From: Candidatus Bathyarchaeota archaeon
GTDB taxonomy: Archaea > Thermoproteota > Bathyarchaeia > Bathyarchaeales > Bathycorpusculaceae
Reading direction: 5' to 3'
Length of the DNA stretch: 64,000 nt
Assembly (NCBI GenBank): GCA_963702095.1
Contig: OY969706.1
Coordinates: 64,001 to 128,000, forward strand
Below are positions 11,789 to 58,166 of the stretch, piece after piece (positions within the stretch are counted from its first letter, which is position 1; each line of letters begins with the position of its first letter). Both the position numbers and the translations under genes were made by a program. The notes beneath the pieces are model-generated. The model saw only the letters and a list, made by a program, of their open reading frames with translations, was not told the DNA's origin and searched no databases.

Positions 11789-11803
11789 CAGCCCGCTTCT
11801 TAA

Positions 11804-12079: not shown

Positions 12080-12300
12080 ACGTTAACACCTTTAAGAGAT
12101 GCTTTTCGGGATGAACGAACAACTGCGACCCACGCTGTATTTTGAGGAACACAAACATGAAGCACTTGTTGCCCGTTCACCTTTCCGTGCTAAAATACTA
12201 TCAATAGACTCTTCATATAAAACCGATGTGCCGTCTCTCTGAAGAAGCGAAAAAGCGAGAAGTTCAGTATTCGATAAAGTAAACTTTATATTAAAATCAG

Positions 12301-12549: not shown

Positions 12550-12590
12550 ACTGTTCATTATTATTGTTTCAAAGAAATCAACCGTGAATA

Positions 12591-13561
12591 TTGATGATTG
12601 TTTTACTTACCAACAAGTTTGACATTTCTGTTGACTTTGTGGTAAGGTATCTTCGTGAGCATAACGAGGAATTCTTACGAATAAACACAGAAGATTTGTT
12701 AGCCCAAGAGGTGCAAGTCAGTTTACCCGATTTTTCTTACGTAGTAGCGAATAAAGAGAAGACCTATAATTTAGCGAAAAACTTACACGCAGTCTTATTT
12801 AGAAGACCTGGAAGCCGTTCGAGTTTACCCCTAAGAATCGTCGTCCATCAAAAGCAACCGTAAATTATATCCAAAATCAATGGCACACATTTTTGGAAAG
12901 CATGTGCACCCTTGAAAATGTTTTGTGGATAAACAATCCACTGAAGAACCATCGTGCTGAGAACAAAATACTTCAGTTGAGACTTGCCTCAAAGATAGGT
13001 TTTAACATACCAAAAACTTGCATAACTTCTTCGAAGGAAAAGGCGTTGGAGTTTTCAAGAGATTGTGGAAATCAAATAATCGCTAAAGCGTTATCTATTC
13101 CATTAGTTGAATATCCAGAGAAAGATTTTTTCATATTTACAAACAAGGTTAGCTCTATTGAAACTTTTACCGAATCAGAGTTCAAATTAGCTCCAACTAT
13201 ATTTCAGGAAGCGATAACCCCAAAAAGTGATTATCGCATCACTGTAGTTGGAAAAAACTGTTTTGCCGTTAAGATAGAATCTCCCGATAACATGGCGATT
13301 CCGATTGATTGGAGATTAGATAAAAGGCGACTAAAATATACATCAGTCAAAATACCTTCAGACGTTGAGGCTAAATGTTTTAAACTTGTCAAAGATTTAG
13401 GTTTAGTCTTTGGAGCTATTGACCTCATAGAAACAAAAGGTTCATTCTATTTTCTTGAGATAAATCCTAATGGGGAATGGGGCTGGCTCCAAAAAGAAGC
13501 TAATCTACCTATTGCGGAAAGCCTCGCCAATATTCTCATTAGTTGTAATGGAGTTCAATGA
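12591..13561 (+). CDS. MvdC/MvdD-like ATP-grasp RiPP macrocyclase; apparent 1-nt deletion near 12813
   Basis: VLFRRP, WINNP..AENKILQL, PKTCIT, IFQEAI, DYRITVVG, IDWR, FGAIDLI, FLEINPNGEWGWL; the two ORFs join as RRPG(R/K)PFEF...QWHTFLESM. Confidence 0.9.
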
Positions 13562-14210
13562 CATGGATAAGATGCAAATTTTAGAATTTCTTTTTCCCGC
13601 TGGTGCTGCTTGGATTATTAACAAAGAATTGTTGTCTAATAATTCAAAGAAAGCAAAAAATGCAAAGGTAGCAACTCAGGATTGGAACAAAAGATTTGGA
13701 ACGAAAGAGGTTACATTGATTTCTAAAATGGCTGATGATTTGTATAATTTTGAGATGCAAAGACTGAATCTTTTGGCGAGGAAGGGCACTTCTCTTTTGG
13801 CAGCAGCGGGATTTGTTATATCTCTTACATCTTTGATTTTAGCATTTGGAAAAGATTGGCTTTATTATGCTGGGTCGTCACTAGTGCTTTTTTTCATACT
13901 CTTGGCAGTTATTAACTTTGTTGCATCAGCGGTTTCCGCTTCTAAGGCACTTAAAATATCGCCGCTTCACCTATTGACAATTAGTGATGCAGGCGACATT
14001 CTGGATAATAAAGTACTGAATAAAGATGAATTGACAAATCAATGGGCGTCACAGAAGCTTCTTGACGTGGATTTGAACTATGACATTATTCTCACAATAA
14101 CTAATTGGCTTGACGCTGCACAAGGTTCTTTCTTAAGAGGAATCTATTCAATTGGGTTTGGCTTTGCAATACTGACTTTCATAATTGTTTTCTTTCCAAA
14201 AATTGCCTAA
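13548..14210 (+). CDS. 3-TM membrane protein (possibly Pycsar-effector/DUF5706-like)
   Basis: Overlaps ligase stop; RLNLLARKGTSLL followed by two TMs, a soluble linker and a C-terminal TM. Confidence 0.6.
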   Translation: MEFNDMDKMQILEFLFPAGAAWIINKELLSNNSKKAKNAKVATQDWNKRFGTKEVTLISKMADDLYNFEMQRLNLLARKGTSLLAAAGFVISLTSLILAFGKDWLYYAGSSLVLFFILLAVINFVASAVSASKALKISPLHLLTISDAGDILDNKVLNKDELTNQWASQKLLDVDLNYDIILTITNWLDAAQGSFLRGIYSIGFGFAILTFIIVFFPKIA

Positions 14211-14253
14211 AAACTTTTAGCAACAATAATGGCTAATTAAGAGAGGTGAGAAC

Positions 14254-14331
14254 ATGGGCAAAGGCGGAAAACCAAGCACAATAGGAAATCCATCCGGAAA
14301 AGGTCGGGACAATAACCCACCAAGGAAATAA
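14254..14331 (+). CDS. 25-aa micro-ORF MGKGGKPSTIGNPSGKGRDNNPPRK
   Basis: Strong GAGGTGA SD just upstream of ATG; followed by T-rich terminator-like sequence. Confidence 0.6.
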   Translation: MGKGGKPSTIGNPSGKGRDNNPPRK

Positions 14332-14559
14332 TCATTCTGCGTTTGAAAATAGAGGAAGTGGGGTACCTACTCTTCGTTCTCTTCGTTTTGATGTTCTCGA
14401 TTATTTGGTTTTATTTTTATTCATCATTTGTTTCTATTTGAAATCCTGACCAAATCTTCAACCAGAGTTAGACATATTATGAATTTAAACCAAAAAATAA
14501 ACGCTTAGAGGCAAAAACTAAAAGCTGATTAAAACAACTAATCTGAGCAAGGACAAAAA

Positions 14560-15033
14560 ATGAGTGCCGATATTATTACTCAGATATTGGGAATAATTGG
14601 GACCTCCACTGGAGTATTGGCTTTGATTATTTCCTATCGGACATACGCCAATGCAAGACCGAATTTGAAGGTCAACGTAAAGAAAATTGAACATTATTCT
14701 GATACTTTCATTAAAGGAAAAAACATGACAATTGCGACCCAATTAGCAATCAGCAATTGTGGAGACCGACCTACAACTCTAAACGAAATAGAAGCCCAAT
14801 TCACATACAAGGGAAGACAATACAAATTCAAAGAAGAATTCATAAGAACGGTAACAGATGGTGAAGAAAATGTCGGGTATAGCAAAATATCAGTCGAGCC
14901 TCATGAGACAACAGACGAATACGTATATCTCAAGGGTTTAATCTCAAGCATCCCAAAAGAAATAATTTTTGATTTCAGGATTTACCATACACATGGTGTA
15001 TGTTCTTTTAGGGAGACTTCTTCTAAGCGTTGA
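14560..15033 (+). CDS. Hypothetical N-terminally anchored beta-rich protein
   Basis: N-terminal TM then Ig-like ISNCGDRPTTL pattern. Confidence 0.65.
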   Translation: MSADIITQILGIIGTSTGVLALIISYRTYANARPNLKVNVKKIEHYSDTFIKGKNMTIATQLAISNCGDRPTTLNEIEAQFTYKGRQYKFKEEFIRTVTDGEENVGYSKISVEPHETTDEYVYLKGLISSIPKEIIFDFRIYHTHGVCSFRETSSKR

Positions 15034-15790
15034 ATAAGTTGTGCAGGGTAACAATGTAAATTGCGATATTCGAAGCATGTTATGTTACAATCTTTTGAGA
15101 TTGTCTATTGCTTTAGCGCTTTAGAATGCAACCCAAAAGTATAGCAGCGTTTTCGTTTTCAACCTTGCTATTAAAAGCATCAATATCCAGAATTTTCGCA
15201 CTTTTAACACGTAAAGTCGAAAAAAAACGAGCAAAAATTCTCCGTAAAACGCTAAAATAAGGATGATTTGAGGAGCTTTTAGCGTTATGCTGTCAGCGTT
15301 CATGCGTTATTCATGCGTTCGAAGCCGATGGCAAACATTCAACAGTGTAAAAAGCGCTTTATGTCCATTTGTAATCTGACGTGAAACGTCGTTTTTTATT
15401 CAAAAAATCGCATTTTTCCTCGCTTAGAACGGTGAAACAGATAACGATGTTATCTCACTTCGGACTTACCTCGAAAAGTACAACAACTTTAAAAATGACT
15501 CAGTTTAGGTTTTAACGATATGCTGAGTGGCTGTTGAACCGTTGAGTGTTCAACTCATGTTCGTAATGCGTCAGCGTTCCAGAATTGCGGAATTTCAGTT
15601 TATGGAAAAATATAACACACACGAAGAATGAAGAATCAAAAGGCATGTGTTTGTTTTAAGCTTGAGGTTTGGATTTTATATCATTAAAGCGTTTGTCTCT
15701 CAAATCTTGAAATTTCGCAATTCTAAAAGCGTTTAAGCGTTTCCTTTAATGACCGTTAAACCAATAAACGTAAAATGAATATTGAAGGAT

Positions 15791-15961
15791 ATGAAACGAA
15801 ATATCCTTAGTGGCTTTCCGTATGAGGTAACGAAAGACGGAAGCATCACTACTATCCGATTCTATCCAAAAAAGTCAAACGCTGAATATCCAAATCAAAG
15901 CGAGTTTGTATTGAAACTAAACGAAACTGATAGACAAACGCTAATCAAGCTTTTATCGTAA
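15791..15961 (+). CDS. Hypothetical 56-aa protein (MKRNILSGFPYEVTKDG...)
   Basis: Manually translated ORF below the 60-aa track cutoff; protein-like composition. Confidence 0.45.
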   Translation: MKRNILSGFPYEVTKDGSITTIRFYPKKSNAEYPNQSEFVLKLNETDRQTLIKLLS

Positions 15962-16083
15962 ATCACGAAGCTTTCATAGCGTTGGTTTCAAGCGTTTGAT
16001 ACGTTAGAACCTGAGTGCATAAAATGAAAACTTTACATTATTCAACAAAAATGGGAAAAAGGATTTGTTAATTTAGAACTGTT

Positions 16084-16377
16084 TTAGGGTTGATATCCCC
16101 CTCCGCTTGCTCGGATTTCAGCTACTCGTTGTGTTAGCCATTGTGCTTCATTACCAGAATAATTTTGCGAAATGTAGCTATTGATATGTTCCAGCGTCCA
16201 AGGCATGTTAGCTAAAGATTGGGCGAGGTTTTCGTTAGCCGCATCAACTTGCTTTTGTGCCTCATCTGCGCGATTGTTGAGGTCTATTTGATGCATTATT
16301 GACATGCCAAGCAATGTTACAAAACAAAGAAGACCAATTATGATTAACGCTAATTCTATTGCATGTTTGCTTTTCAT
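16084..16377 (-). CDS. Hypothetical single-TM coiled-coil protein
   Basis: GAGGT SD, N-terminal TM. Confidence 0.6.
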   Translation of the reverse strand: MKSKHAIELALIIIGLLCFVTLLGMSIMHQIDLNNRADEAQKQVDAANENLAQSLANMPWTLEHINSYISQNYSGNEAQWLTQRVAEIRASGGGYQP

Positions 16378-16433
16378 TTTATATACCTCATCACGAGTTT
16401 CAAAGTTTTTAGATATCTCAAAAAAAACGATGG

Positions 16434-16724
16434 TTACGCTGGGGCTTTGATTGCCTCAGCGATTGAATAAAGGTGATTGAAATGACTTTTTTCGGTAGGC
16501 TTAACGTATGCGATTTTGCCTTCTTTTTTCAGCGATGCCATTTTTGTTCGTATATAGGCGCGTCCTTGGTCAGGGTCTTTAACGCCCAATTTATCGCTAA
16601 TTTCGCGTGATGATGCAGGGTGCCCTATGCTTTGAACGGCTGTTATTAGCTGTTCAGTTGAGAAATTCAGTTTTTCATTTTGGGTTTTGGTTTTTGAGGT
16701 TTTTGTTTTGGGTGTTTTTGACAT
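16434..16724 (-). CDS. wHTH DNA-binding protein
   Basis: PASSREISDKLG...IRTKMASLKKEGKI; GGTGA SD before ATG 16724. Confidence 0.65.
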   Translation of the reverse strand: MSKTPKTKTSKTKTQNEKLNFSTEQLITAVQSIGHPASSREISDKLGVKDPDQGRAYIRTKMASLKKEGKIAYVKPTEKSHFNHLYSIAEAIKAPA

Positions 16725-44655: not shown

Positions 44656-45213
44656 ATGACAAACCCCACAAGAGTAACCGTCGCCTTCGACAAACCCACA
44701 GCCGACCTCCTAGAAAAAATAAGCAAAGAAGCCGACGTTTCACAGAGCGAAATCATGCGCCGCGCCCTAAAATTCTACAGCGAAAACAAAAGCCTCGAAG
44801 ACCCAACAACCAAAAAAAGAATCCACGCCTACCTAGACATGCTCTTCACCGGCGAACACGTAATAATAGACGTAGACCACTGGCTGATGTTTCTGCACTT
44901 AATCGACACCTCGCCACAGAAAGACCAGTTCTGGAAAGAACACCGTGAACTCGCCAGGGCACACTGGGAACAACTCAAGAACAAAATCCACAGCACCGAA
45001 GACATGCTTATGCGCTTGGAAGCCTGCAACTTTTACCGCCTCATAAAGAACGCGCCCAACGATTTCACGCTTGTGCTGGTTTCGGAGGGTTCTAAGGACT
45101 TTATTCGTGTGTTCTTGGAGGAGTATTTTGCGGCTATGGGTGTTAAGGTTGAGATTAAGGAGAACCTTACTAAGCTGAGGGTTATCCTCAAACCCAACGG
45201 TTCCAAAGCATAA
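44656..45213 (+). CDS. CopG/RHH-domain regulator with C-terminal ligand-binding-like domain
   Basis: RVTVAFDKPTADLLEKISKEADVSQSEIMRRAL. Confidence 0.8.
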   Translation: MTNPTRVTVAFDKPTADLLEKISKEADVSQSEIMRRALKFYSENKSLEDPTTKKRIHAYLDMLFTGEHVIIDVDHWLMFLHLIDTSPQKDQFWKEHRELARAHWEQLKNKIHSTEDMLMRLEACNFYRLIKNAPNDFTLVLVSEGSKDFIRVFLEEYFAAMGVKVEIKENLTKLRVILKPNGSKA

Positions 45214-45336
45214 CTGTCCAATCAAGAGCTAATTATCATTCTATTTATCTATTTTTTCCTAAAAATTATGAACAAATCGTAACTACATTTATATCTTATT
45301 GAACAATGTTTTGAGGGTGAGAAAGAGGAATAAAAA

Positions 45337-45450
45337 ATGATAAATGCAATAATTCTCGGGTTAAGCCTCATCGCCGCGGTTGTAGGTTCCTTCGCAAGCG
45401 AGATTTACTTAGCGAAGAAAGTCGGCTCGGAAGGCTCCGCCTCAAATTAA
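45337..45450 (+). CDS. 37-aa single-TM small protein
   Basis: MINAIILGLSLIAAVVGSFASEIYLAKK...; upstream TTTATA box and GAGG. Confidence 0.45.
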   Translation: MINAIILGLSLIAAVVGSFASEIYLAKKVGSEGSASN

Positions 45451-45752
45451 ACGGCGTTTGTAAACAAACATCGAATGCATCAGAGTCTGCTAAAGCTTAA
45501 TTCTGGATCGTATTCTGTTTTGGAATCCTAAATTAGACGCGCTCGCGAGAGCGGCTTTCATTGCTGGTTTTATTCGAAAATTCATAACATTTATGAAAAA
45601 ATCTCAACTAACCTTATATTTAATTGAATATATTATATGTAATCATGGAATAAGTGAACAACCATGAGCGTGGAAAACAAAAAAACCCTAAAAACGCCAG
45701 CGAAACTGGCAAGATGCCCAACCGCAGCCTAAAACTACAGGAGAAAAGAACC

Positions 45753-45917
45753 ATGGACCCAACAACCCTAGTCCTAGAACTCTTCGGCGTCGGATCCCTC
45801 GCATTCGCCTTCGCCAAATACACCATTGAGAAAAGGAAAATGGCAAGCTCAGAGGACAACATGAAAAATAACTACCTAACCCATAGCTTAGGCTGCAATA
45901 ATTCCCCAATTTCTTAA
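45753..45917 (+). CDS. 54-aa small membrane-associated protein
   Basis: AGGAG SD; MDPTTLVLELFGVGSLAFAFAKY. Confidence 0.4.
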   Translation: MDPTTLVLELFGVGSLAFAFAKYTIEKRKMASSEDNMKNNYLTHSLGCNNSPIS

Positions 45918-45999
45918 CGTTTCCAATGTAGTTTTGTTTTTGGTTTGCAGAAGCTTTTTTGCCCTGACCCATCACCTACAAGTCTAAGGTGAAAAAAGA

Positions 46000-46161
46000 G
46001 TGGGTGTCAAATTAACCGTTGATGGAAAAACCGTTCCCCTAAACGATTTTGTGGAAAGCATCTTGGGCGGCACCATAACTGGGGCAGTTACAACCCTGCA
46101 TGGCGTCGAAGCTGATTGGCAAAAAATCGAAATTACAATCGAGCGGCAGCCTAACCTTTAA
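46000..46161 (+). CDS. 53-aa protein resembling the MobB C-terminal domain
   Basis: AGGTGA SD; VKLTVDGKTVPLNDFVESILGGTITGAVTTLHGV. Confidence 0.6.
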   Translation: MGVKLTVDGKTVPLNDFVESILGGTITGAVTTLHGVEADWQKIEITIERQPNL

Positions 46162-46714
46162 ACTCCACTTTTGCATCTAACTCTGCAAACATTTCCCGAT
46201 TGGCCTTGCAGATGGGGCAGATGTACGGTGGGTCTTCCCGGTACACTACGTAACCGCATTGTTTGCAGTACCAGAGTTTTTTTTTGATTTCAGGCGGCTT
46301 TTGTGTTTGCGGTTGCGTGGGCGGCGTGGCTTTTTTTTGTGTTACCTCCACATGTTGTTTGGCGATTGGTACACCGTATGCTCTTTGCTGTTTTTCCGGG
46401 GGTCGGCGTTCTGGCACTTCGGGGAGGTTTTGGCTTTCGTAAACCACTTTGTTGACGTAGAGGCGGCAGTAGCAGGCGCCGTATTGGGCTACGTCGGGGT
46501 CTCGGTAGTCGCAGGGGCAGATGATGTCGCGGTCTAAGTCTAGGTTGCCTGTGCCTAGGCGGCAGGGGCAGACTGGGTAGCCGTAGCGTTCCTCGTTTGT
46601 TTTTAAGCCCTCCAAAAACATCTGGAGCAGCTCCGGTTGGGGCGTGAGGTAGTAGCCGTAGGTTTTAGCGTCGGTTTCGGCGCGTTTACGTACAGCTTCT
46701 ATGGTTGGGGTCAA
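46151..46714 (-). CDS. Ferredoxin:thioredoxin/disulfide reductase catalytic subunit fused to rubredoxin
   Basis: CPCR, CPCDY, CYCRLY; C-terminal CKQCGY...CPIC. Confidence 0.92.
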   Translation of the reverse strand: MTPTIEAVRKRAETDAKTYGYYLTPQPELLQMFLEGLKTNEERYGYPVCPCRLGTGNLDLDRDIICPCDYRDPDVAQYGACYCRLYVNKVVYESQNLPEVPERRPPEKQQRAYGVPIAKQHVEVTQKKATPPTQPQTQKPPEIKKKLWYCKQCGYVVYREDPPYICPICKANREMFAELDAKVEFKG

Positions 46715-46995
46715 ACGCCAAGAGCCTCTTTAAGCTGGTCTTTGCGGAACCCGTTGATTAGGGTTTTGTCGTCTATGATTGTGGTGGGGTAGCTGAGGCT
46801 TCCGCCTTTATCCAAGATGGCTTTGTGCACTTGACTCTTGTCATTGTCCTCCAAGAGGTCAACATCGACAAATTCGTAGGCGACGCCGTTGTCGCTTAGA
46901 AACTGCTTAGTTAACTTGCACCACACACAGGTGCTTAGAGCATAGAGGATGACTTTGTGGTCGCTTTTTTTCCCAGAAACCTTTGAGAATTGCAA
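46711..46995 (-). CDS. Glutaredoxin-like protein
   Basis: CVWC, SYPT. Confidence 0.88.
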   Translation of the reverse strand: MQFSKVSGKKSDHKVILYALSTCVWCKLTKQFLSDNGVAYEFVDVDLLEDNDKSQVHKAILDKGGSLSYPTTIIDDKTLINGFRKDQLKEALGV

Positions 46996-47124
46996 CTGAA
47001 AAATTCACCAATAGATTTTGGTTTTGCGCGCATATAACTGTTTAGATGAGAATCGCTTGCACGCTACTTTTCTTTGGGTTAGCAGTTGCGGTCTCTTCTG
47101 TTTTCCATGAAAATGTTAGACCCT

Positions 47125-47865
47125 CTAATACTTTGTCAGCAAGTACTCCGAGAGGTTCTTAGAAATCTCCGGCAGACTTTTGGCTATTCGATCCGGCGCC
47201 TGTTTGCTCTGTGCCAAATCGTCTAAACTGTTAAACTGCGAAGAAACAAAGACCGTGCCTAACCCAGCATCTTTGGCGCCCTTAATATCCTCAATTGGGC
47301 TGTCCCCGACGAAAACCGATTCCTGCGCCGCCACCCCCATCCGCTTCAGAATTTCTTGGAAAATGTCACCGCAGGGTTTTCTGCAGCCAACTTCATCCGA
47401 AACAACGATGGCGTTAAAGTATTGGTGTATGCCGACTTTTCTTAGGCTTCTGTGGATGACGGGGGCATGGGTGAAGTTGCTGATTAAACCCACCTTGTAC
47501 TCTACGGCGGTTTGCTGGAGCAGTTTTTTGGCGCCTTCCCGCAGTTCCATGGTGTCGATGAAGTCTTGGAAAAACACGTTAAGCGCTGCCTTAACATGGG
47601 CGTCTTGGGGTGTGACTTTGAAGCCTAAGCTACAGAGGGCTTCTGCGACCCAAATGGCGTTGGTTACTTCTTTGAATTCTTCGTAGCGGATTTTGCGGTA
47701 TTTTCGGTGGGCAACATTGTAGGCAGCCAGAAACTGTTCCTTGTCTAAGTCGAAGCCTTCTGCAACAAGCGCCCGATGCAGGTTGTCCTCGGAGTCTGCC
47801 ATGCTGTAGCCTACGCAGTTGACTAGTGTGCCTATGTAGTCGAAGATTACAGCTTTGATGGGCAT
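47125..47865 (-). CDS. HAD-family hydrolase
   Basis: DYIGT, SN, KP, GDS..EDI.GA. Confidence 0.9.
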   Translation of the reverse strand: MPIKAVIFDYIGTLVNCVGYSMADSEDNLHRALVAEGFDLDKEQFLAAYNVAHRKYRKIRYEEFKEVTNAIWVAEALCSLGFKVTPQDAHVKAALNVFFQDFIDTMELREGAKKLLQQTAVEYKVGLISNFTHAPVIHRSLRKVGIHQYFNAIVVSDEVGCRKPCGDIFQEILKRMGVAAQESVFVGDSPIEDIKGAKDAGLGTVFVSSQFNSLDDLAQSKQAPDRIAKSLPEISKNLSEYLLTKY

Positions 47866-48611
47866 TGGCTACTCCCTTTTTGGTTGACTGCAGCTTTTTT
47901 GATTCTATCCATGGCTTCGCCGAGGGCTGTGCCTAAGAGGTGGTTGGGATAGCCAATTGAGGATTCAACGTTGGGGTCATAGATGATTTCACCCAGATAG
48001 TTTAGCCCCAACCGCTGTGTTTCACGCTGGATTGCCGTTGACTTGTCCATCTTTAGGTTTTCTACGACGCCGACTATGGGCATTTTCAGTTCCACAAGGA
48101 GAGCGACTTGTTTTTTGACTACTTCAAAAGCCAGAAGCGACGGCGTAGTCACAATCAAAAACTCTATGCGCTTAACTAGCCGCACCATGTCAAGCACGGC
48201 GTCGCTGATGCCCGGCGGCATATCGATGATTAAAAAATCAAGTTCGCCCCACCGAGTTATAGCCAGCAACTCTATTAGGGCGTTGGATATGTCGCCTCCC
48301 CGCAGCGGCGCAGGGTTATCTCCGACAAAGTAAACCATGGACATGTATTCTAAACCGTTGACTGTTGGGGGGATGATGCCTTTGTCTTCTTTGGGCTGCA
48401 CAGTTTTGGGGACGTCTAGAATTATGTGGGTTGAGGGACCGGTGAAGTCTACGTCGAAGAGGCCGACGCGGCAGCCTTCTTTGGCAAGGGAGAGCGCTAA
48501 TGCGGTGGCAATCATGCTTTTGCCGACGCCGCCTTTGCCGCTTGAAACGGCGATAATTCGCTTTATCCCAGCTAAACGGTCAGTTATTACGCTTGTCCGC
48601 GTGTCAATCAC
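47847..48611 (-). CDS. Mrp/NBP35 ATP-binding protein
   Basis: SGKGGVGKS, DVDFTGPS, IDMPPG, VVEN. Confidence 0.9.
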   Translation of the reverse strand: MIDTRTSVITDRLAGIKRIIAVSSGKGGVGKSMIATALALSLAKEGCRVGLFDVDFTGPSTHIILDVPKTVQPKEDKGIIPPTVNGLEYMSMVYFVGDNPAPLRGGDISNALIELLAITRWGELDFLIIDMPPGISDAVLDMVRLVKRIEFLIVTTPSLLAFEVVKKQVALLVELKMPIVGVVENLKMDKSTAIQRETQRLGLNYLGEIIYDPNVESSIGYPNHLLGTALGEAMDRIKKAAVNQKGSSQCPSKL

Positions 48612-49012
48612 TCGGCTTTGACTCCTTGTATGTCTTCAAGCCAGACTCCGCGTCCACTGGCGATTTCAAAGTCGGGGCTGCCGCATTTTGGGCACTTGAT
48701 GTATGAGTGCGCGACTTCGGGGACAAAGTGGATGGCTTCGGCAGTGGCTTTGTCGAGGCTCTTTGTGTTGTACTGCCAAGAAGTGCCGCAGACACGACAT
48801 TTCAATGTAGACTTTGCCTTCAAAATTCGGAATTTGGCGCCCTCAAAGATACCGGTGCCCAACTGTTTTAGTGCAAACCGCAGAATCGGCGGCTCAACCT
48901 GCTGTAGCTCGCCAATGCGTATAGTGACCTCTGTGACCTGTACTAGGTGCTCCTGCACTGCGATCTGCTGTGCAGTGGCGAGTATTCCTTCAGCTAGTGC
49001 CCATTCATGCAT
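48608..49012 (-). CDS. hypA: Hydrogenase nickel metallochaperone HypA
   Basis: MHEWALA, CRVC...CPKC, GRGV. Confidence 0.93.
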   Translation of the reverse strand: MHEWALAEGILATAQQIAVQEHLVQVTEVTIRIGELQQVEPPILRFALKQLGTGIFEGAKFRILKAKSTLKCRVCGTSWQYNTKSLDKATAEAIHFVPEVAHSYIKCPKCGSPDFEIASGRGVWLEDIQGVKAE

Positions 49013-49125
49013 AACTAAAAAGGTTTAACGCGGCAATAAAAGAATATTGCAAAGTGCACGTCGATTCTGGGGCGCAGTAGCTTTAAATCCCCCAAGTCGC
49101 CCCTAATCTTTTCGGTGTTTCTGTT

Positions 49126-49689
49126 TTGAGCCAAAAAATCAAGGTTCTATCTTTCGCAGGCAGCTTAAGAGCAGGCTCCTACAACAAAGCCATGGTCCGT
49201 GCCGCCGTAGAAGTGGCACCGCAAAACGTAACCCTCGAAGTTTTCGATTTAGCTGGCATCCCACCCTACAACGCCGACCTCGAAGCTAACCCGCCGCAGA
49301 AGGTAGTGGAATTCAAAGAGAAAATCCGCCTAGCTGACGCCCTGCTCATCGCTAGCCCCGAATACAACTACTCCATCCCGGGCGTACTCAAAAACGCCAT
49401 CGACTGGGCCAGCCGACCCGCCAAAGGCAACCCATTGGAGGGCAAACCTGTGGCTATCATGAGTGCCTCCACAGGCAGGTTCGGTGGAGCAAGGGCGCAG
49501 TATCATCTGCGGCAGTCCTTTGTATTTCTCGATATGCACCCAGTTAACCGCCCAGAAGTCATGCTCTCAGACGCAGCCCACAACGTTGATCTCGAGGGTA
49601 GGGTAACTAACGAGGTGACGCGGGAGCTTATTGGGCAGTTGCTTGAGGCGTTGGCGGCATGGACAATTAAGCTCAAAACTCCGCCTTAG
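49126..49689 (+). CDS. NAD(P)H-dependent FMN reductase (ChrR/SsuE-like)
   Basis: GSLRAGSYN, PEYNYSIPGVLKNAIDW, GGARAQ. Confidence 0.92.
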   Translation: MSQKIKVLSFAGSLRAGSYNKAMVRAAVEVAPQNVTLEVFDLAGIPPYNADLEANPPQKVVEFKEKIRLADALLIASPEYNYSIPGVLKNAIDWASRPAKGNPLEGKPVAIMSASTGRFGGARAQYHLRQSFVFLDMHPVNRPEVMLSDAAHNVDLEGRVTNEVTRELIGQLLEALAAWTIKLKTPP

Positions 49690-49767
49690 CATTCCGTGGC
49701 GTACTCTGGGTTTGTTGTGAAAAGCCTTAAAACGGTTAACCAACACGTTAAGGCTTGGCGAATTCAG

Positions 49768-49794
49768 ATGAGAGTTATAGCGGACTTGCACATC
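49768..49794 (+). pseudogene. Displaced native 5' end of endoQ (MRVIADLHI) at attL
   Basis: ATG AGA GTT ATA GCG GAC TTG CAC ATC; continues as endoQ only if joined to 53791. Confidence 0.85.
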
Positions 49795-49851
49795 GCCATG
49801 TACACAAATGCTTAAATTCGGGTTCACGGTAATACACAATCGGCGATTAGG

Positions 49852-51442
49852 TTGGTACGTAAACGGTTAGACGGTTGGAAATTCGTCAAAGACACCCAAG
49901 AACACCTTTATCCTAAAGAACGGGAAATGCTGGATTTCATCAAGGCTGAGAAGCAGCTCTCAGTTGAGCAACTTTTAGAGAAGTTGAAGTACGGCAAAGC
50001 CCAGAAGAGAACCATCGAAATAACCGCTTACCGTCTCAGGCAGAAGGGCTTAATCGACTCAATCATCACATTGGTAGAGGGCGAGGTTTCTAAGGAGGTC
50101 AGGGAGCTAACTCAGTCGAGCGAAGCACTCAAAGCGTGGACTCGACGCCTCAACTCTCAGGAAACCATCAACAAATTCCTCTATTTGTACCTGCGATATT
50201 TTGGGTGGATTAAGCAAAAGGGCTGCTATCAGACTCCCGACGAAATGATTGAGCATCAACAGAACGCCGAGTCCAACAAGGAGCGCTTCAAGGACATTAC
50301 CCTCATTGAAGACTACCTCTTAGAGTCTAAACTTCCAGCGCCTCAGCAGAAAAGCACCTACACGGCAATAAGGAGCTTCTATAAACACAACAAAGCTGCT
50401 CTTCCAGCCTACCCTATCCAGTTCAAAACCAAGAACAACAAGCCCAAAGTAACTGAGGAACCCATCACTCTGCCGGAAATCAAAGAGTTACTCAAGAACG
50501 CTAACCCCCGAGAGCAAGGCATCTTCCTGTGTTGTCTTCATGCAGGCTTGGACCGCTCAACCTTCTGCAAAGTGTTTAACCTTAATGCATGGCCGCAAAT
50601 TGTCAAGCAGATGGGAACCGAGAACGCTGACGATTGGGACCTCTCAAAAGCTCCTGTCAAAATAGAGTTGCTCCGGCCTAAGACTCAACAGGAATACTAT
50701 AGTTTCCTCTCAGTCGATGCTCTAAAAGCCATCCAAGCATGGCTAAAAGTCCGGGAAACGTTGACAGGTAAGAAGATGAGCGCTGGAGAACCCCTCTTTT
50801 TGACGGCGAGAAGAGAACCCATGCAAGTAGACAACGTGAGCGGCCTCTTCAATCGCTTAGCCATATCTGCGGGGCTGGAAGCAAAGAAGTACGGGAAGGC
50901 CGTCAGAGGTTAGATACCGCTTCCATGCTCACGAGCTCCGAGACACCCTAAAAAGCGCTTGTTCAATGGCGGGGGTGGTGACAGCGGTTTCTGAGTTCAT
51001 CATCGGCCATGAAATCGACTCTCTGCATTATGACAAGAGCCCTCAAGCATACCCAGACCATTTCAGAGCGGAATATCGCAAGGTAGAAGTCCACATCAAT
51101 ATCTTCAGCTCTGAAGAGGCTACGGCCAAAAAACTTGAGGCCGTTGAAGAGAGACTCGCACAGAAGGACTCAATCATAGGGAGCTTAGTTGAGGACAAAA
51201 AAGCATTGGAGAACCGAGTCGAACGCATGGAGCGCATGATGATGAACTTTGAGAGGGTCCTCAACCAACAGCCAGGAGCAACCACAATCCAAGCGGAAGA
51301 GCAGAAACAAGCGGCATGGAAAGAGCATCTAAAACAGCATCCAGAGCTTCAGCTCTCAGTCGAGGACACAGCGGACCCCGTGAAGCTTGAGCAGTTCTTG
51401 AAGGCCTACAAAGGGTTCCAAGAGCAGAAAATCACAGCCTAA
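49852..51442 (+). CDS. Tyrosine integrase with N-terminal wHTH; apparent 1-nt insertion near 50902
   Basis: GLDRS, RPKT; removing G after GGCC gives SEVRYRFHAHELRDTLKS...IGH...YDK. Confidence 0.88.
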
Positions 51443-51578
51443 ACGCCTTTTTTTTCTTTGTGTTTGCTGGGCAAAATAAGGCTTTTTTTGAGCCCTATTT
51501 TTGATTTAAAGGCTGTAAAAACGTGCAACAAGCCTTAAGTACATACTTCGTTCATACCTCAGATTCAGGGTAAAAAGC

Positions 51579-51731
51579 ATGAAGAAAAGTGGAAGAATCA
51601 TATTTCGCGCCGACAAAGCCTTCATCGAAGAAATCTCCCAAATCGCTGAAGAGCTTGACGAAAGTCGGTCGCGTCTGATTAGGAAAGCCATCAAAGAGAA
51701 AATCGCCGCTTTGAGAGGGGTTCAGGCGTGA
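51579..51731 (+). CDS. CopG/RHH DNA-binding protein (50 aa)
   Basis: RIIFRADKAFIEEISQIAEELDESRSRLIRKAI; GTGA overlap with next ORF. Confidence 0.75.
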   Translation: MKKSGRIIFRADKAFIEEISQIAEELDESRSRLIRKAIKEKIAALRGVQA

Positions 51732-52105
51732 CGAACCAAACCACAGCGACAATAGACGACCCCAGCAGAGACGACCATGTGCAGAACTGGGAGCTCTTTC
51801 TTGAAGAGCGCAAAGATGTCGCCGACAGAGCGGTCGCCGAGACTGAAGCGATTGAGCAACGGGCAAAGCAAATTGTTGCCAGCGTGAGAAGGGGTGCGGC
51901 TGAGCGCTTAAATCAGGAAAGGGCGAAGGCCTACAAGGAAGAAGCTGAACGAAAAATCAAGGACGCCCTGACTCCGAGAGAAAAACAAGCCGTCAAAGCC
52001 GTAAGCGAAATGTGGCAGAGACAGCCGCAAGTTCACCCGCCATCATCCGAGCCCAAAGGCGTTCTCGACCTCTACGCGATTCGTCAAAAAAGGATTCGCC
52101 CATAG
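51728..52105 (+). CDS. Hypothetical coiled-coil protein
   Basis: Coupled to RHH gene. Confidence 0.65.
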   Translation: MTNQTTATIDDPSRDDHVQNWELFLEERKDVADRAVAETEAIEQRAKQIVASVRRGAAERLNQERAKAYKEEAERKIKDALTPREKQAVKAVSEMWQRQPQVHPPSSEPKGVLDLYAIRQKRIRP

Positions 52106-52166
52106 ATTTCTTGAGATGGTAGCCCAACCTGCCGTCTGAGAGATTTCTAAAAAGGAGGATGGAAGG

Positions 52167-52817
52167 ATGGGCATAGCAGTAACTCAGAGTCCAAACAAAA
52201 AGCCAGCTAAATCTATGGAAGAGTCCAAAGAAAAAGCCGACTTTTCTCCAAAGATTTTTACGACTCACCCTAAAAGCGGGAAGAGACGCAAGAACAAACG
52301 CTCAATCTTTGAAGATAGTACGGCTAAAAGCCGACTTTCTTCCATAGAACATGAGCTTGGTTTATCGGGGTTATTTGAGGGAGAAGTTTACCATTTAAGC
52401 TTTGATTGCCCTAAACCGCTTGCAAAACTGTTTAAAGAGTCAACAAAGGCTAATGGAACCAGCATTTGCAAAGAACTCCAGAAATATGCCTTATCATATT
52501 GCGCAAACCATGTACTTGAAAAGTCGGCTTTTGGCAGTACTTTGAGCAGGGTTTTGAAGCCTAAACTCACTATTGAGAACTTGAATTTTGAGCAGTACTG
52601 CCAGACAAGACCTCGTCGCTGGATTCCAAAGTCCGCTGAGGAGGTGAAAGTCGTCGATGCTGAAGGGGTGAAAGGCAAGTTCTGCGAGGTTGGCGGGGGA
52701 GCCTGTAAGGAGCCTGCGGTCACTGTGGGCGTCTATTTGCCCACTAAGAAAGAGTACCGTCTCTGCTCTAAGCATGGAAACCTGTTTGCTGAGACATCAA
52801 GCTGGAGGGTTCATTGA
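52167..52817 (+). CDS. Hypothetical protein with RHH-like segment and C-terminal zinc finger
   Basis: HLSFDCPKPLAKLFKE; CEV....C...CSKH. Confidence 0.65.
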   Translation: MGIAVTQSPNKKPAKSMEESKEKADFSPKIFTTHPKSGKRRKNKRSIFEDSTAKSRLSSIEHELGLSGLFEGEVYHLSFDCPKPLAKLFKESTKANGTSICKELQKYALSYCANHVLEKSAFGSTLSRVLKPKLTIENLNFEQYCQTRPRRWIPKSAEEVKVVDAEGVKGKFCEVGGGACKEPAVTVGVYLPTKKEYRLCSKHGNLFAETSSWRVH

Positions 52818-53083
52818 TGAGCTGTCAAGGGTGTAAGGGTGAGGCGAAACCCTGCCAAAACCGTAAGGCAAAGGAGACAAGAGAAGGACTCTTTCGTCAT
52901 TTGGACGCTGTAATAAGCCTCTCACTGGAAAAAATCAAGGCTCGGGGCAACTCTGACAGAGCAAAACTGAGCTATGGACGTCTGCTCTGTACCGCCATTT
53001 CCTGTTATGGGGACTTGCTGAAGGACGCGGAGCTGGAGTCTATCGAGGCGCGTCTTGAGAGGCTGGAGGGGGTGAAGTCGTGA
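52814..53083 (+). CDS. Hypothetical helical protein
   Basis: GGAGG SD; ELESIEARLERLE; overlapping operon. Confidence 0.6.
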   Translation: MMSCQGCKGEAKPCQNRKAKETREGLFRHLDAVISLSLEKIKARGNSDRAKLSYGRLLCTAISCYGDLLKDAELESIEARLERLEGVKS

Positions 53084-53403
53084 GTAATTTTAAGAAGCGT
53101 GTTGCAGTCTTGGAGAGGTTCCGTGCACCTGTCAACTCTTCGCCGTCTAAGGTCTATGCTGGAGACATCCCAGAGGGTACAAAGGTAATCAAGGGCCGTT
53201 TTTGGCATCCGAACCCTGAAATTTGTAGGACCCTACCTCAACCGACAACTGGTCTTAGCATGTGGAGCCCTGGAGGGGCTGTGCAGGTCTTTGACGAGTC
53301 AAATTGGCATTTGCTGCCCTGCTATGGTTGTGCAAGCTTCGGCCATCAATGCAGTGGACCGGTGAGCGTGAAGCTCAACGTCAAGAGGAGTGCGGATGCA
53401 TGA
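53080..53403 (+). CDS. Hypothetical Cys-containing protein
   Basis: GGTGA SD, GTGA overlap; CYGC....C. Confidence 0.55.
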   Translation: MSNFKKRVAVLERFRAPVNSSPSKVYAGDIPEGTKVIKGRFWHPNPEICRTLPQPTTGLSMWSPGGAVQVFDESNWHLLPCYGCASFGHQCSGPVSVKLNVKRSADA

Positions 53404-53573
53404 CTAAAAAGTACCCAAAAGACTACAAAGTCACAAAGGGGCTCTGGAAAAATAGGGGTGAGAATGTGCCTCACTGCGCTAAGTGCCGTCGCCGATTCAA
53501 GGTCGGCATGTGGGTGCACAGGTTGAACAAGCGGCTTCTCTGCCAGAAATGCTATGATGGCATGTTCGTCTAA
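53400..53573 (+). CDS. Small zinc-finger protein (57 aa)
   Basis: ATGA overlap; CAKC...LLCQKCY. Confidence 0.65.
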   Translation: MTKKYPKDYKVTKGLWKNRGENVPHCAKCRRRFKVGMWVHRLNKRLLCQKCYDGMFV

Positions 53574-53584
53574 CCTTTTCCGTC

Positions 53585-53686
53585 GACGGAGGTCTCCCTT
53601 TCCGTCTGGGCTCCCCGGGTTGCAGAATGGGCAAAACTGCGCTCGGGTCCCGGGTGCTGGGCTGGAGCCTTAGCGAAGCTTTTTTT
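53585..53686 (+). ncRNA. Candidate compact structured RNA (hairpin + three-way junction + U-tract)
   Basis: GACGGA/TCCGTC, GGGCTCC/GGAGCCT, CCGGG/CTCGG, TGCAG/CTGCG, CCCGG/CTGGG, then AGC-GAA-GCT and T7. Confidence 0.45.
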
Positions 53687-53760
53687 ATGTCTCAAGTGTT
53701 TTAGCCCTGTCTGTATGGGAGATGTAGTGAGCGCTTGAGATTAAGGGGGAACCTATTGGT

Positions 53761-55058
53761 TTGACTCGTGTATATGCGGACTTGCACATCCACGGCAGAT
53801 TCAGCCGCGCAACCAGCGAACAGATGAACTTAGAGGAAATTGCCAAGTACGCAAAAATCAAAGCGGCCTCACCCTGGTAGGCACAGGCGACTTCACCCAT
53901 CCTCTGTGGCTACAGGAAATCCGTGAGGTCCTCACCCCCGACACCGACACAGGACTGCTTAAACTTGCCAAAGTGGACTCGCCCGTGCGGTTTATGCTGC
54001 AAACCGAAGTCTGCACCATCTTCGACCACGAGGGGGAATCCAAAAAAGTCCACCACGTCATACTCACACCAAGCCTCGAAACCGCAGACCAAATCAACGA
54101 GCGCCTTGTAAAATTCGGCGACTTAAAAGCCGACGGACGCCCAATACTGGACTGCACCGCACCGCAGCTAGTCGAGGAAGTCATGGCCGTCAGCGGTGAC
54201 AACATGGTGTTCCCCGCGCACGTTTGGACTCCGTGGTTTAGTATCTTCGGTGCTTTCAGCGGTTTCAACACTGTTGAGGAATGCTATCAGGACATGACTA
54301 AGCACATCCACGCGTTGGAAACCGGGTTGTCTTCGGATCCTCCGATGAATTGGCGCCTAAGCGGACTCGACAAATACGCGCTCTTATCGAATAGCGACTG
54401 CCACAGTTTCTGGCCTTGGCGCATCGGCAGAGAAGCCAATGTCTTCGACCTTCCCGACTTCGCTTACAACCAAGTTATTTCAGCCATATCTGACAATGAC
54501 CCAGAACGCTTCAAATTCACCATCGAAACCGACCCCGCCTACGGCAAATACCACTGGACCGGACACCGCAACTGCAAAATCAGCCTCTCACCCCCCGAAG
54601 CCATCAAATTCGGCAACGTCTGCCCAGTCTGCCGCCGCAAACTCACCAAAGGCGTCGAACAACGCATTGAAGAACTCGCCGACCGCCCAGCCACCTACAC
54701 ACGCCCCGACGCACCTGGCTTTAGGCGACTGCTACCGCTCTCAGAAGTCATCGCTGCCGTCGTCGGAACCGACTCGCCCTCGACACAAGCCGTTTGGAAA
54801 ATCTACAATGCACTTGTGGGGAAATTCGGCGACGAATACTCCGTGCTCATCGATGCGCCGCTGGATGCGTTGTCTGCGGTTGCGGATGCACCGTTTGCAC
54901 AGGCGATTCTCAAAGTGCGGGAAGGCACCGCTAAAGTTACGCCAGGCTACGACGGCGTCTATGGACAGCTTGAGTTGGGCGTTGAAACACCGAAGGCTAA
55001 GCCAAGGTCGCCGCCAGTGCCTACAGTGCAGCAGCGGAGCATGAGCGACTTCTGGTAA
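53761..55058 (+). CDS. endoQ: Endonuclease Q (PHP domain), start supplied by the element; apparent 2-nt insertion near 53863
   Basis: ADLHIHGRFSRATS, GTGDFTHP, PAHVWTPW, ETGLSSD, NSDCHS, GKYHWTGHRNC, CPVC, PGYDGVYG. Confidence 0.9.
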
Positions 55059-55138
55059 CTTAATCAAGTCACCGTTTGTCAGATTTGAAACGCATTGTTT
55101 AATTCCCACATTAATTCTAGCTTTAGTGGACGATTACT

Positions 55139-56524
55139 TTGAAGGACCTTCTAACAAAACTCAACGGTGCCGCAACCGCCAAGTATGGCGCTTCCTACGC
55201 TGAAACCCGTGCACAGCGGCTCACCAAAACCATGCTTACCCTCAAGGAGGAACGGGTAGAAGCAGCCAAACAGGGCATTGAATCGGGCGTTGCTATCCGC
55301 GTGCTCGTAGACGGCGCATGGGGATTCGCCTCGGTAGGCTCCATGGACCCAAAGATTTTGGAAGCAGCGGTTTCTGACGCCTGCAAAATGGCGAAACTCG
55401 CCAGCAGCCGCCTCAAAAACCCCATCAAACTTGCAGCCGCCAAAACCGTCGAAGCCCACGTGGCTGCAAAACCCAAAAAGAATCCCTCCGACATCGCCAT
55501 GGAAGACAAAATCAAAACCGCCTTAACCATAAACAAGACCAGCCTCGCCTACGACAGCCGCATAAAAAGCTGCAGCGCAGACTACCTCGACTTGATGGGC
55601 AACAGCACTTTTGCAAACAGCGAAGGCACCTACATCGAACAGGACAAACTCTACGTTTGGGCGCGGCTGACGGCTTCGGCTGAAAGCGGCGGAGTCTTCA
55701 CCTATAGCCGCGAGGAAATTGGATCCACTTTTGGCTATGAACTCTTCGACGACCAGCCACCCGAGGAATTGGGCAACAAAGTCGCCAAACGTGCTATCGA
55801 ACAAATCAGCGCTAAGGCGCCTAAGGGAGGCAAAAGCCCCGTTGTCTTGGGACCTAACGTGGTGGGGGTGTTTGTGCATGAAGCTTTTGGGCATCTTGCC
55901 GAAGCAGACTTGGCGCTCTCAGGAGGATTGTTGGCAAGCAACATGGGCAAGAAGTTGGGCTCTGACTTAGTCACGTTCTATGATGACGGCACTTTAGCGG
56001 GTTCTTTTGGCGCGTTCGGGTACGACGACGAAGGTGTCGCCAGCCAAAAAACCCTGCTCATAAAAGACGGCGTGGTGGCGGGGTTGATGCATAACCGCGA
56101 AACCGCACAGAAATTCAACGCAGAGCCCACAGGCAACGCACGCGCCGAGGACTTCCGAGTTGAACCCATCATCCGCATGCGCTGCACCTACATGGCGCCC
56201 CGCGACCACAAGCTTGAGGAGCTATTGGAAGGTGTCAAGGAAGGTTTCTACTTCAAGAGTTTCCGCGGAGGCCAAGCCAGCTTAGATGGCACCTTCCAAG
56301 TGGGCATACAGGAAGGCTACGAGATCAAAAACGGCGAAGTCGGCGAGGCAGTGCGAAACGCATCCATCAGCGGCAACACGTTAGAGACGCTGCATAAGGT
56401 GGATGCTGTTGGCAAAGATTTTATGCTGGACCCTGGAAGGTGCGGGAAGGGGCAGACGGCGTTTATCTGTGACGGTGGACCGCACATAAGAATCAGCGAG
56501 GTGGTTGTCGGTGGCAGTGCTTGA
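55139..56524 (+). CDS. tldD: TldD family metalloprotease
   Basis: GWGFA-like, [28 protein letters not shown]. Confidence 0.92.
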
Positions 56525-57878
56525 AAAAGATTTCATGATTAGCTTAGCCGAGAACACGGTGAAAGCAGCCCTGAAACTGGGCGCAGCAGAGGCAGAAGCC
56601 TACGTTTACGAGGGCCAAGCCACCAACATCGGCATCGATCTGGGCCAAATCAGCAAAACCAACCGCATAATCGACCTCGGCGTAGGCATACGCACCATAG
56701 CCGACAAAGCCGTCGGATTCGCCTACACCAACATCGTAGCCGACAAAGCTGCCCTAGAAAGCGTCGTCGCCCGTGCACTGAGCGCTGCAAAAGCCAGCAA
56801 ACCCGACCCTGACTGGCGGGGGCTGCCCCAAAAGAAACCCTACAGCACAACAGAGGGCACCTTCGACCAGAAAATAGTTGAGTTGAGCCCCGAAGACCTC
56901 GTCAAAGTAACCGCCGCAATGCTGGACTCTGCAGGCGAAGTTGACAAACGCGTCTTCTCCATTGAGGGCGGAGTCGGCAGCGGATACGTCGCCAACGCCA
57001 TCGCCAACTCCAACGGCGTCTCCGGCTACGACAGGGGCACAATCGTGGAGTGCAGTTTGGCGGCGCTGGCAAAAGAAGGCGGCGCAGTCACACCGGTGTG
57101 CTTCGAGTTTAATGCTGCCAGAAACTACAGTCTCGACCCATCTTGGGTGGGCAAAGAAGCCGCGAAGTTGGCAGTGTCCGCGCTCAAGCCTAAGCCGGTG
57201 GAATCGAAACCAACCAAGGTCATTTTAACCCAGTTTGCACTGCAGGACCTCTTCGCCTACACCCTGATGGGCGCGGTGAAAGCGGATAGTGTCCAGCGCA
57301 ACCAGTCGCCGTTTAAGGGCAAAATCGGAGAGCAAGTCGCTTCAGAGAACCTATCCATCTACGACGACGGTTTGTACCCCACAGGACTGCGCACGTCAAT
57401 CTTCGATGGGGAAGGCGTGCCCCACCAAAACACCCCAGTCATCGAAAAAGGCGTCCTCAAAAACTACCTCTACGACAACTATGCCGCCAAAAAAGACGGC
57501 GTCCAAAGCACAGGCAACGCCTCACGCGCAGGCTACCTCAGCACTCCAGGCATCGACACCACCAACTTCCACATCACCCCCCAAAACAAAACCACAGAAC
57601 AAATGCTCTCTGAAGTCGGCGACGGCTTAATCATTTACTACCTCCAAGGCGCACACAGCAGCAACCCAGTGAGCGGAGAATTCTCTGTGGTGGCGACGCC
57701 ATGCTGGAAAATCAAGGGCGGAGAAATAACCCATTCATGCGGTGGCGTGATGCTGGCAGGCAACATCTTTGAACTCCTCAAAAACATCTCAGTGGTCGGC
57801 GGCAACGAACGGCAAATGGGCTCAATAATTGCGCCATGGGTGATTGCGGATAATGTGCGGGTAATCGGTAAACAGTAG
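56505..57878 (+). CDS. pmbA: PmbA/TldE family protein
   Basis: FDGEG, STGNA, SGEFS; lacks HExxH; coupled to tldD. Confidence 0.9.
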
Positions 57879-57921
57879 AAAATTAGAAACTCTTGAGCAG
57901 GCGAACTGTACCTGTTTACGG

Positions 57922-58166
57922 CCCTGCTAGTGCTCGCCCTGTATTGTGCTGTCGTTGCTGTTCACTGTCTCGCTAAGAAAGCAAACGATACATGGTTTCA
58001 CATACACATCGCGTCCGCTTCCGCATGGAATCATGTGCCGCGTGTGGAAGAAAACGGATTTCTCACACCGAAACGGGCGCAAAAAACGTTGCAACCAAAA
58101 AAGCAACCGCATCCAGTTGCAGTATTGTGGCAATTCTATGGCCGCCACACCCACAAAGAGAGAAAC
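57922..58166 (+). repeat. Dispersed intergenic repeat, copy D
   Basis: TGCTAGTGC..GCTGTTCACTG..GATAC..CATGGAATCATG..GTGTGGA..TGGCAATTC..CGCCACACCCAC..AAAGAGAG. Confidence 0.85.

Follow-up and report, generated by a model that had tools for sequence, protein, structure and literature searches.

We analyzed a 64,000-nucleotide stretch of DNA (hereafter the window, with positions counted from its first letter), which corresponds to bases 64001-128000 of the closed 2.94-Mb genome of a Candidatus Bathyarchaeota archaeon (G000), and found that its endoQ gene, which encodes a repair nuclease for deaminated bases, is occupied at the extreme 5' end by a 3,996-bp integrative element. The element sits at the codons of PHP motif I, the same kind of site is used by most readable members of the clade to which its integrase belongs, and its right end brings an in-frame replacement for the N-terminus that integration displaced. 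From these data, we conclude that endoQ was probably rebuilt rather than destroyed by the insertion.

The borders of the element are given by a 15-bp core, GCGGACTTGCACATC, which occurs on the + strand at 49780-49794 and again at 53776-53790, with a spacing of 3,996 bp. Allowing one mismatch, we found no third copy in the window, and the same pair was returned by a repeat search (repeat D13). The left copy, attL (left attachment site), encodes A-D-L-H-I and is preceded by ATG AGA GTT ATA (49768-49779), located behind a AAAGCCTTAAAA box. The right copy, attR (right attachment site), is followed by CAC GGC AGA TTC AGC CGC GCA ACC AGC. Counted with one copy of the core, the element extends from 49795 to 53790, of which 49795..53775 (+ strand) is specific to the element, and its G+C content is 0.49, versus 0.468 for the genome. 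An earlier note on this DNA, made from the letters alone, had described both the duplication of the core 3996 bp apart and the native start M-R-V-I-A-D-L-H-I to its left, and we confirm the two of them, with exactly two copies of the core in the window and the native start at 49768-49794. As it stands, this displaced start of endoQ is a 15-codon stub on the + strand (49768..49815), MRVIADLHIAMYTNA*, that enters the DNA of the element and ends at a TAA. The region just upstream (49720..49767, + strand), with its conserved TATA-like AAAGCCTTAAAA box, is almost identical to the corresponding DNA of G007, where endoQ is uninterrupted, and most relatives have the box upstream of endoQ as well. The region would be the endoQ promoter, and after integration it faces the integrase gene of the element.

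The empty site was found in G007, the closest relative, whose EndoQ is 90% identical. There, the 80 nt upstream of endoQ are the same as in the left flank of the element and are followed by an uninterrupted MRVIADLHIHGRFSRATS. When the G007 contig was compared with G000 by blastn, two blocks were obtained, covering 57872-53776 and 49793-46114 of the window; they abut, with an overlap of 14 nt at the core, and neither of them covers 49794-53775. Hence, one alignment starts at the first base of attR and the other ends at 49793, within attL, so the borders drawn from the direct repeats match the empty site to the base. Together, the repeats and the empty allele in a relative support the proposal of the earlier note that this is a site-specific integrative element with its attachment site in a protein gene.

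Regarding other relatives, EndoQ-like genes were present in 35 of the 41 genomes searched (G000 counted), and the N-terminus was readable at 18 of the relatives' 19 loci. All 18 have a native start and their own upstream DNA, with no insert, and their proteins begin x-[R/K]-[V/I/A]-I-[A/S]-D-[L/M]-H-[I/V]-H-G. The nineteenth locus, in G016, has stops within the endoQ match, yet its FMN-reductase and endoQ genes are contiguous. The FMN reductase gene also lies directly upstream of endoQ in G014, where we considered the divergent upstream region as a possible scar of the element; we rejected this candidate, as it is an ordinary site.

One could argue that the repeat is an assembly artefact, or a chance repeat around ordinary strain-specific genes. 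The assembly does contain systematic indel errors (see below), which speaks for this view. However, the borders coincide with the empty site to the base, no match to the core arose in 100 dinucleotide-preserving shuffles, and junctions built in the same way are found in two other genomes and five metagenome contigs. This explanation is already contradicted by the data, and we regard it as extremely improbable.

We then placed the core on the EndoQ protein. The intact EndoQ of G007 aligns with PfuEndoQ from residue 3 (E 8.3e-67), with its DLHIH opposite Pfu residues 6-10. The N-terminal PHP domain of PfuEndoQ is reported to bind two Zn ions through His8, His10, Glu76, His84, His139 and Asp193 (PMC5961232). 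The core spans codons A5-D6-L7-H8-I9 of endoQ, and the codon for His10 is the first one to its right. That the core lies in the codons of a metal-binding motif, as had been noted earlier, is therefore borne out by the alignment of G007 EndoQ with PfuEndoQ and by the ligands described in that report. The endoQ body in G000 (53791..55058, + strand), which carries a 2-nt insertion at 53864-65 beside a GGCC, also matches PfuEndoQ (E 1.3e-53, residues 33-413) and the NCBIfam model TIGR00375, the latter with 197.9 bits, under the equivalog cut-off of 326.6.

The right end of the element supplies what the gene has lost. Directly before attR, at 53761..53775 on the + strand, TTG ACT CGT GTA TAT (M-T-R-V-Y) stands in for the native M-R-V-I, and we verified both the sequence and the frame with the core of this near-mimic, which had been pointed out in the earlier note. 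The TTG is the sole ATG, GTG or TTG in the replacement frame after the upstream TGA. For the arginine, the native genes use AGA and the elements CGT, so that the same residue is specified by a different codon, and the likeness is therefore one of protein and not of DNA. Upstream of the TTG, the right arm (53681..53760, + strand) contains a run of seven T, a TATA-like TTTTTTTATG (~53683) and a purine-rich AAGGGGGA, the putative promoter and ribosome-binding sequences of the rebuilt gene.

At the other end of the element, 57 nt after the left core, starts the gene of a tyrosine integrase (49852..51442, + strand), which is split as assembled into 49852-50913 and ~50903-51442 (+1 frame). With the gene split, the first piece matches Pfam PF00589 with 23.7 bits (E 4.5e-5; cut-off 27.1), and the PHROG match is to an integrase (4.7e-4). 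The catalytic motifs HELR, GH and Y (in LHYDKSP) are found in the second frame, aligned with the homologue in G093, and we assigned by eye RPKTQ as the place of the first catalytic arginine. The intact homologues in G093 (449 aa) and G129 (~497 aa) pass the same PF00589 cut-off with 38.9 and 36.8 bits, respectively. As a separate observation, residues 1-95 of the integrase (49852-50130) have no Pfam match and are common only to the clade that targets PHP genes; these N-terminal ~95 residues may set the specificity for the target or for the arms.

To delimit this clade, we searched several collections with the integrase. In the genus, 16 of 101 genomes gave a match at E <= 1e-5, among them G093, with an intact protein of 50% identity, and G045, with a decayed fragment. 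A second search of the genus gave 11 of 120 genomes at E <= 1e-12 and added the integrase of G129 (51% identity). At the class level, integrase relatives were found in 33 of 401 genomes at E <= 1e-20; at least 50% identity was seen only in G000 and G129, and the others were 25-36% identical and aligned only from about residue 90. A scan of metagenomes returned seven more contigs, with 50-86% identity. Besides, a scan of genome contigs with the G093 integrase found nothing but the query itself, and a scan of viral contigs gave one distant match of 22% identity. The clade thus has 11 members, with a left junction that is readable in 10 of them; in contig L119 the 5' end is missing and the junction falls off the contig. 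In a maximum-likelihood tree the clade received a support of 100/100, and the endoQ users formed one group with L116 (91/96), with L120 filling just 35% of the columns.

In eight of the ten members with a readable left junction, a gene-start remnant encoding A-D-L-H-[I/V] stands directly before the integrase, and in the same eight (G000, G093, G129, L114, L115, L116, L117 and L120) the integrase adjoins attL and is co-oriented with the target. The target is endoQ in three of them (G000, L115 and L120), a PHP gene located after metG in four (G093, G129, L114 and L117), and in L116 a gene without identification, whose remnant reads ...KAVADLHV. Similar integrases at other endoQ 5' ends, for which the earlier note suggested a survey, are present in L115 and L120, which carry the endoQ junction: L115 shows MRVIADLHI followed by element DNA that resembles the left end in G000, while L120 shows the FMN reductase gene, the endoQ box, LRVIADLHV and then a truncated integrase.

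The second target was resolved in G093 and G129. In both genomes the integrase is preceded by ATG CAA/CAG ATA AGA/AAT GC(C/G) GAC CTC CAC GTC, directly downstream of metG, and the right side of the element resumes with GC(T/C) GAC CTC CAC GTT CAC ACC/ACA, which belongs to the body of a 220-aa protein. In G000 the orthologue of this protein is uninterrupted (MKISADLHVHTTYS...), lies directly after metG and contains the Pfam domains PHP and PHP_C. From the comparison of attL with attR, the crossover of the PHP type falls within GACCTCCACGT (11 nt). The alignment of the 220-aa protein with EndoQ begins at residue 1 and covers 46 residues (E 1e-5), and therefore the two kinds of elements are found at homologous codons of distantly related genes. 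In G093, the EndoQ query found no endoQ (the genome is 56% complete), an outcome that led us to see that its element lies in a different PHP gene.

Among more distant integrases, no D-x-H remnant was detected within 500 nt upstream at any of 29 loci (five of which had less than 200 nt of upstream sequence available), and a tRNA gene lay directly upstream of the integrase gene in two of the 24 loci scanned for it. We also noticed integrases after an arcTGT-like gene, in L118 (~400-490) and in G045 (L041 ~9920-9980, G045:C3). The word beside the arcTGT-like gene agrees with the PHP-type core at 10 of 15 positions; the integrase fragment of G045 contains stops and has no PHP remnant nearby. This place may be a secondary attachment site or may reflect one inherited insertion.

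The replacement of the N-terminus is not a peculiarity of G000: in all three attR that we recovered, an open frame with a substitute N-terminus runs into the gene. Before ADLH, the replacement and the native residues are RVY and RVI in G000, KIL and QIR in G093, and QIR and QIN in G129. The bodies of the PHP gene in the occupied genomes are full-length, with 219 and 216 codons from A5, and in G129 the replacement frame has a TTG 16 codons upstream.

The alternative is that endoQ was inactivated by the integration or by later decay, leaving a fossil element and a pseudogene, with the mimic N-terminus as functionless homology of an attachment-site arm. We consider this unlikely, yet several observations weigh against rebuilding. 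As assembled, both endoQ and the integrase are frameshifted. The endoQ frame that starts at the TTG ends at a TAG (53878-53880), and the remainder, up to 55058, is in the frame of 53763; the break falls 28 codons past the junction. In the integrase, the first frame stops at 50911-13 and resumes in the +1 frame with SEVRYRFHAHELRD...GH...Y. If both breaks are real, we are looking at a dead element in a dead gene. Decay in place is indeed seen elsewhere in the clade, in the truncated integrase of L120 and in the fragment of G045. The replacement has a tyrosine where all 18 readable relatives have the otherwise invariant isoleucine. Regarding G093, no ATG, GTG or TTG exists in the replacement frame after the upstream stop; ATT, ATA and ATC follow a GGAGAT word, and one may speculate that they serve as starts, so that rebuilding in this genome would need an unusual start codon. 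The purine-rich AAGGGGGA, similar to a Shine-Dalgarno sequence, lies 13 nt before the TTG, and the hairpin that precedes the T-run (53575-53700) does not exceed shuffled sequences in stability (z 0.72). Finally, a single attR of the endoQ type was recovered, and the members of the clade were drawn from a single genus and from metagenome contigs that are possibly close kin, so they are not independent instances.

Against inactivation stands, in the first place, the nature of the two frame breaks. The one in endoQ is a 2-nt insertion at 53864-53865 with respect to G007 and all other relatives (...AAAG-CG-GCCTC versus ...AAAGGCCTC), and it is the sole indel in a 4,097-nt alignment with G007 that crosses endoQ, tldD and pmbA. 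The one in the integrase is a 1-nt insertion (...AAGGCC-G-TCAG) next to the GGCC at 50898-50902, and the 449-aa homologue of G093 is collinear across it. Hence, the two breaks lie at the same tetranucleotide. In order to contextualize them, we compared 420 kb of G007 with G000, using orthologue-like open reading frames (ORFs) of at least 200 aa. The frame was changed in G000 in 14 of 206 ORFs of G007, while in the reverse control 4 of 222 ORFs of G000 changed frame in G007, one of which is itself a product of a G000 frameshift. From 34 isolated frame-breaking indels, 10 were located at 3 nt or less from a GGCC, in comparison with 1.6% of the aligned columns (a ~18-fold enrichment), and several other indels yield GCGC where GGCC-like words stood.

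Among the 4-bp palindromes of G000, GGCC also shows the strongest depletion, with 2,675 copies observed and 11,527 expected (an observed-to-expected ratio, O/E, of 0.23), followed by GATC (O/E 0.39) and CTAG (0.48). The genome has two genes for C5-cytosine methylases (G000:C1:2927482-2928645 and 550833-551827), one of which is split in two frames. Given that both local breaks are at GGCC and that indels cluster at this word across the genome, we read them as probable assembly errors, of a systematic kind, at what is probably a methylated motif. Programmed frameshifting and alternative genetic codes were weighed as explanations of both breaks and dropped, since the genome-wide GGCC pattern fits. 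The claim of the earlier note that endoQ is kept in frame behind the DNA of the element consequently stands at the junction and fails further on in the assembled sequence, where the frame is lost at 53864-53865. In the cell, endoQ and the integrase gene are probably intact. Errors of this type would create false pseudogenes in G000, which matters for the annotation of this genome, and they may explain the completeness estimate of 90% for a closed genome. Other conserved genes of the window that are split were observed at ~2066-3366 (with two breaks) and at 6918-8070.

Two further results argue against inactivation. The dN/dS (ratio of nonsynonymous to synonymous substitution rates) of the endoQ body relative to G007 is 0.076, with values of 0.10-0.11 for the neighbouring genes, so selection on it is not relaxed. 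Besides, an arginine that is kept with a CGT instead of an AGA is a better fit to constraint on the protein than to residual homology of the DNA.

According to these results, we favor the reading in which the element uses the codons of PHP motif I as its site and endoQ is rebuilt. The 3,996-bp element would have entered the chromosome by tyrosine-integrase recombination between attP (the attachment site of the element) and attB (that of the chromosome), which would share the DNA for A-D-L-H-I, that is, endoQ codons 5-9 with the first metal-binding histidine included. Strand exchange would leave the native promoter and codons 1 to 9 at attL, directed towards the integrase gene, which starts 57 nt further on, while the right arm would land before the gene body with its substitute N-terminus, a TTG of its own and presumably a promoter as well. 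On this reading, the right arm would have promoter function, the chimeric EndoQ would be active and the element may still be mobile. The right-arm promoter would drive the integrase while the element is circular, a role for which the native endoQ promoter would be placed in the integrated form.

More tentatively, the clade as a whole could recognise the DNA word GCN GAY YTN CAY RTN, which encodes PHP motif I, instead of any single gene, and hop among paralogous PHP genes, as other integrases do among tRNA genes, with a reciprocal swap of promoters. We see this extension as possible and no likelier than that. If true, mobility and a repair nuclease for deaminated bases would be regulated via each other's signals. 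The fact that sister elements are found in another PHP gene suggests that the DNA word was selected and not the function of EndoQ, which weakens the idea, raised in the earlier note, of a switch of repair.

Apart from the integrase, the element contains a 50-aa ribbon-helix-helix (CopG/Arc-like) protein at 51579..51731 (+ strand), with matches to Pfam RHH_1 (E 9e-4, 19.6 bits, cut-off 20.5) and to a PHROG Arc-like repressor (3e-4), which is probably a regulator. Downstream, five ORFs of 125, 216, 89, 107 and 89 aa occupy 51728..53573 (+ strand), the last of them with CxxC pairs; none had a family match at the cut-off in Pfam or PHROG. All ORFs of the element are on the + strand, and no replication or virion gene was recognised among them. 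The 89-aa ORF at 52814-53083 has a counterpart in the G129 element, encoded there on the opposite strand and 45% identical over 68 residues, and it is the only gene besides the integrase that is common to the elements of G000 and G129.

The elements in the PHP gene are larger. The G093 element (L040 9351-18978; G093:C13:109351-118978) measures 9,613 bp and has a G+C content of 0.35, and that of G129 (L084; G129:C3, ~6,990-16,535) measures 9,539 bp with 0.40; they are both ~9.6 kb long and occupy the PHP-domain gene at its 5' end. Besides the integrase region, the two have in common only the terminal ~104 nt of the right arm, a conserved module with 72% identity. SHOCT and Big_13 were the only domains found in their cargo, which includes SHOCT-domain proteins and Ig-like or membrane proteins, and the ORFs of 461 and 670 aa gave no Pfam match. 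On a different matter, two segments of G007:C33, of ~170 nt (L042 2171-2345) and ~117 nt (7742-7860), have dozens of dispersed matches in G000 with 74-83% identity, and would represent an unclassified dispersed repeat family.

When our findings are compared with known systems, the mechanism appears as a variant of one already described. That attP brings a substitute for whatever part of the target gene is displaced is presented as an established rule (PMC10111431). The case of SpyCI bears on a last alternative. This element occupies the 5' end of mutL in Streptococcus pyogenes, where it is described to block mutL and to act as a growth-phase switch, and an element promoter can rescue expression (PMC3430984, PMC4689407). 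By analogy, endoQ could be silent while the element is integrated and be restored by excision. Like SpyCI in mutL, our element occupies a repair gene at its 5' end, and it uncouples the native promoter from endoQ. However, elements that regulate the integrity of a gene (the SpyCI, skin and comK-phage type) are characterized as typically having no replacement in attP (PMC10111431), while our element brings an in-frame substitute N-terminus together with a start codon, which argues for rebuilding, and the sister elements are in a different PHP gene. We therefore hold a SpyCI-like regulation of endoQ to be very improbable.

Regarding archaeal systems, the integrase differs from the 'suicidal' integrases of the SSV type, in which attP lies inside the integrase gene: here the core is 57 nt upstream of this gene, and the split of the latter is a 1-nt indel with no att junction. 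The pTN3-like integrases of Thermococcales are described to use the 5' half of a tRNA gene as attB, with expression from a promoter borne by the element (Badel et al. 2021, PMC8371274). Our element is similar in being archaeal and in taking the 5' part of its target, but the target is a protein-coding gene, and there is no tRNA gene within 45000-58000 of the window. In Thaumarchaeota, 14 of 68 elements were reported in protein genes, all of them 3'-distal and with empty sites in relatives (Krupovic et al. 2019, PMC6563490). According to the same survey their att sites are short (median 17 bp) and the element supplies a new stop codon, whereas our element sits at the very start of its target gene and needs a new start and promoter. 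The known targets of archaeal integrases are tRNA genes, intergenic DNA and the 3' ends of protein genes. A target at the 5' end of a protein gene is not described in section 19 of the review (PMC8371274) or in the thaumarchaeal survey (PMC6563490). A literature search linking integrases with endoQ or PHP genes found no report; it did not cover supplements and is not proof of absence.

The closest parallel is found in the dusA-specific integrases (DAIs) of Proteobacteria, whose members all insert at a single site near the beginning of the coding sequence of dusA, in its 5' end (Farrugia et al. 2015, PMC4482086). Like our clade, DAIs have a clade-specific target at the 5' end of a protein gene, and this end is replaced: their islands are described to supply a substitute for the first beta-strand of the barrel together with putative promoter elements (PMC4482086). 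Another likeness is that the integrase is reported as the only universal gene of DAI islands and prophages, with a highly diverse cargo, and relatives are found more rarely in the paralogues dusB and dusC (PMC4482086). The differences are also clear. DAIs are bacterial and belong to another integrase lineage, while ours is archaeal, with nearest relatives at 25-36% identity. The target is PHP motif I (HxH) at codons 5-9 instead of dusA, and the block of identity is 11-15 bp, in comparison with 19-28 bp in DAIs (PMC4482086). Two paralogous targets are about equally used in our clade (3 and 4, a small sample), in contrast to the occasional presence of DAI relatives in dusB or dusC. Excision of DAI islands was demonstrated by polymerase chain reaction (PMC4482086), while our element is known from its sequence alone. 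The novelty thus lies in the archaeal lineage, in the choice of PHP motif I (codons 5-9) as the target and in two paralogous genes being used to nearly the same extent. With a core of 11-15 bp and two natural targets, this clade offers a compact system for the choice of a coding motif by a tyrosine integrase, and it bears on how att arms re-encode a first beta-strand and on how an exchange of promoters couples the regulation of element and host.

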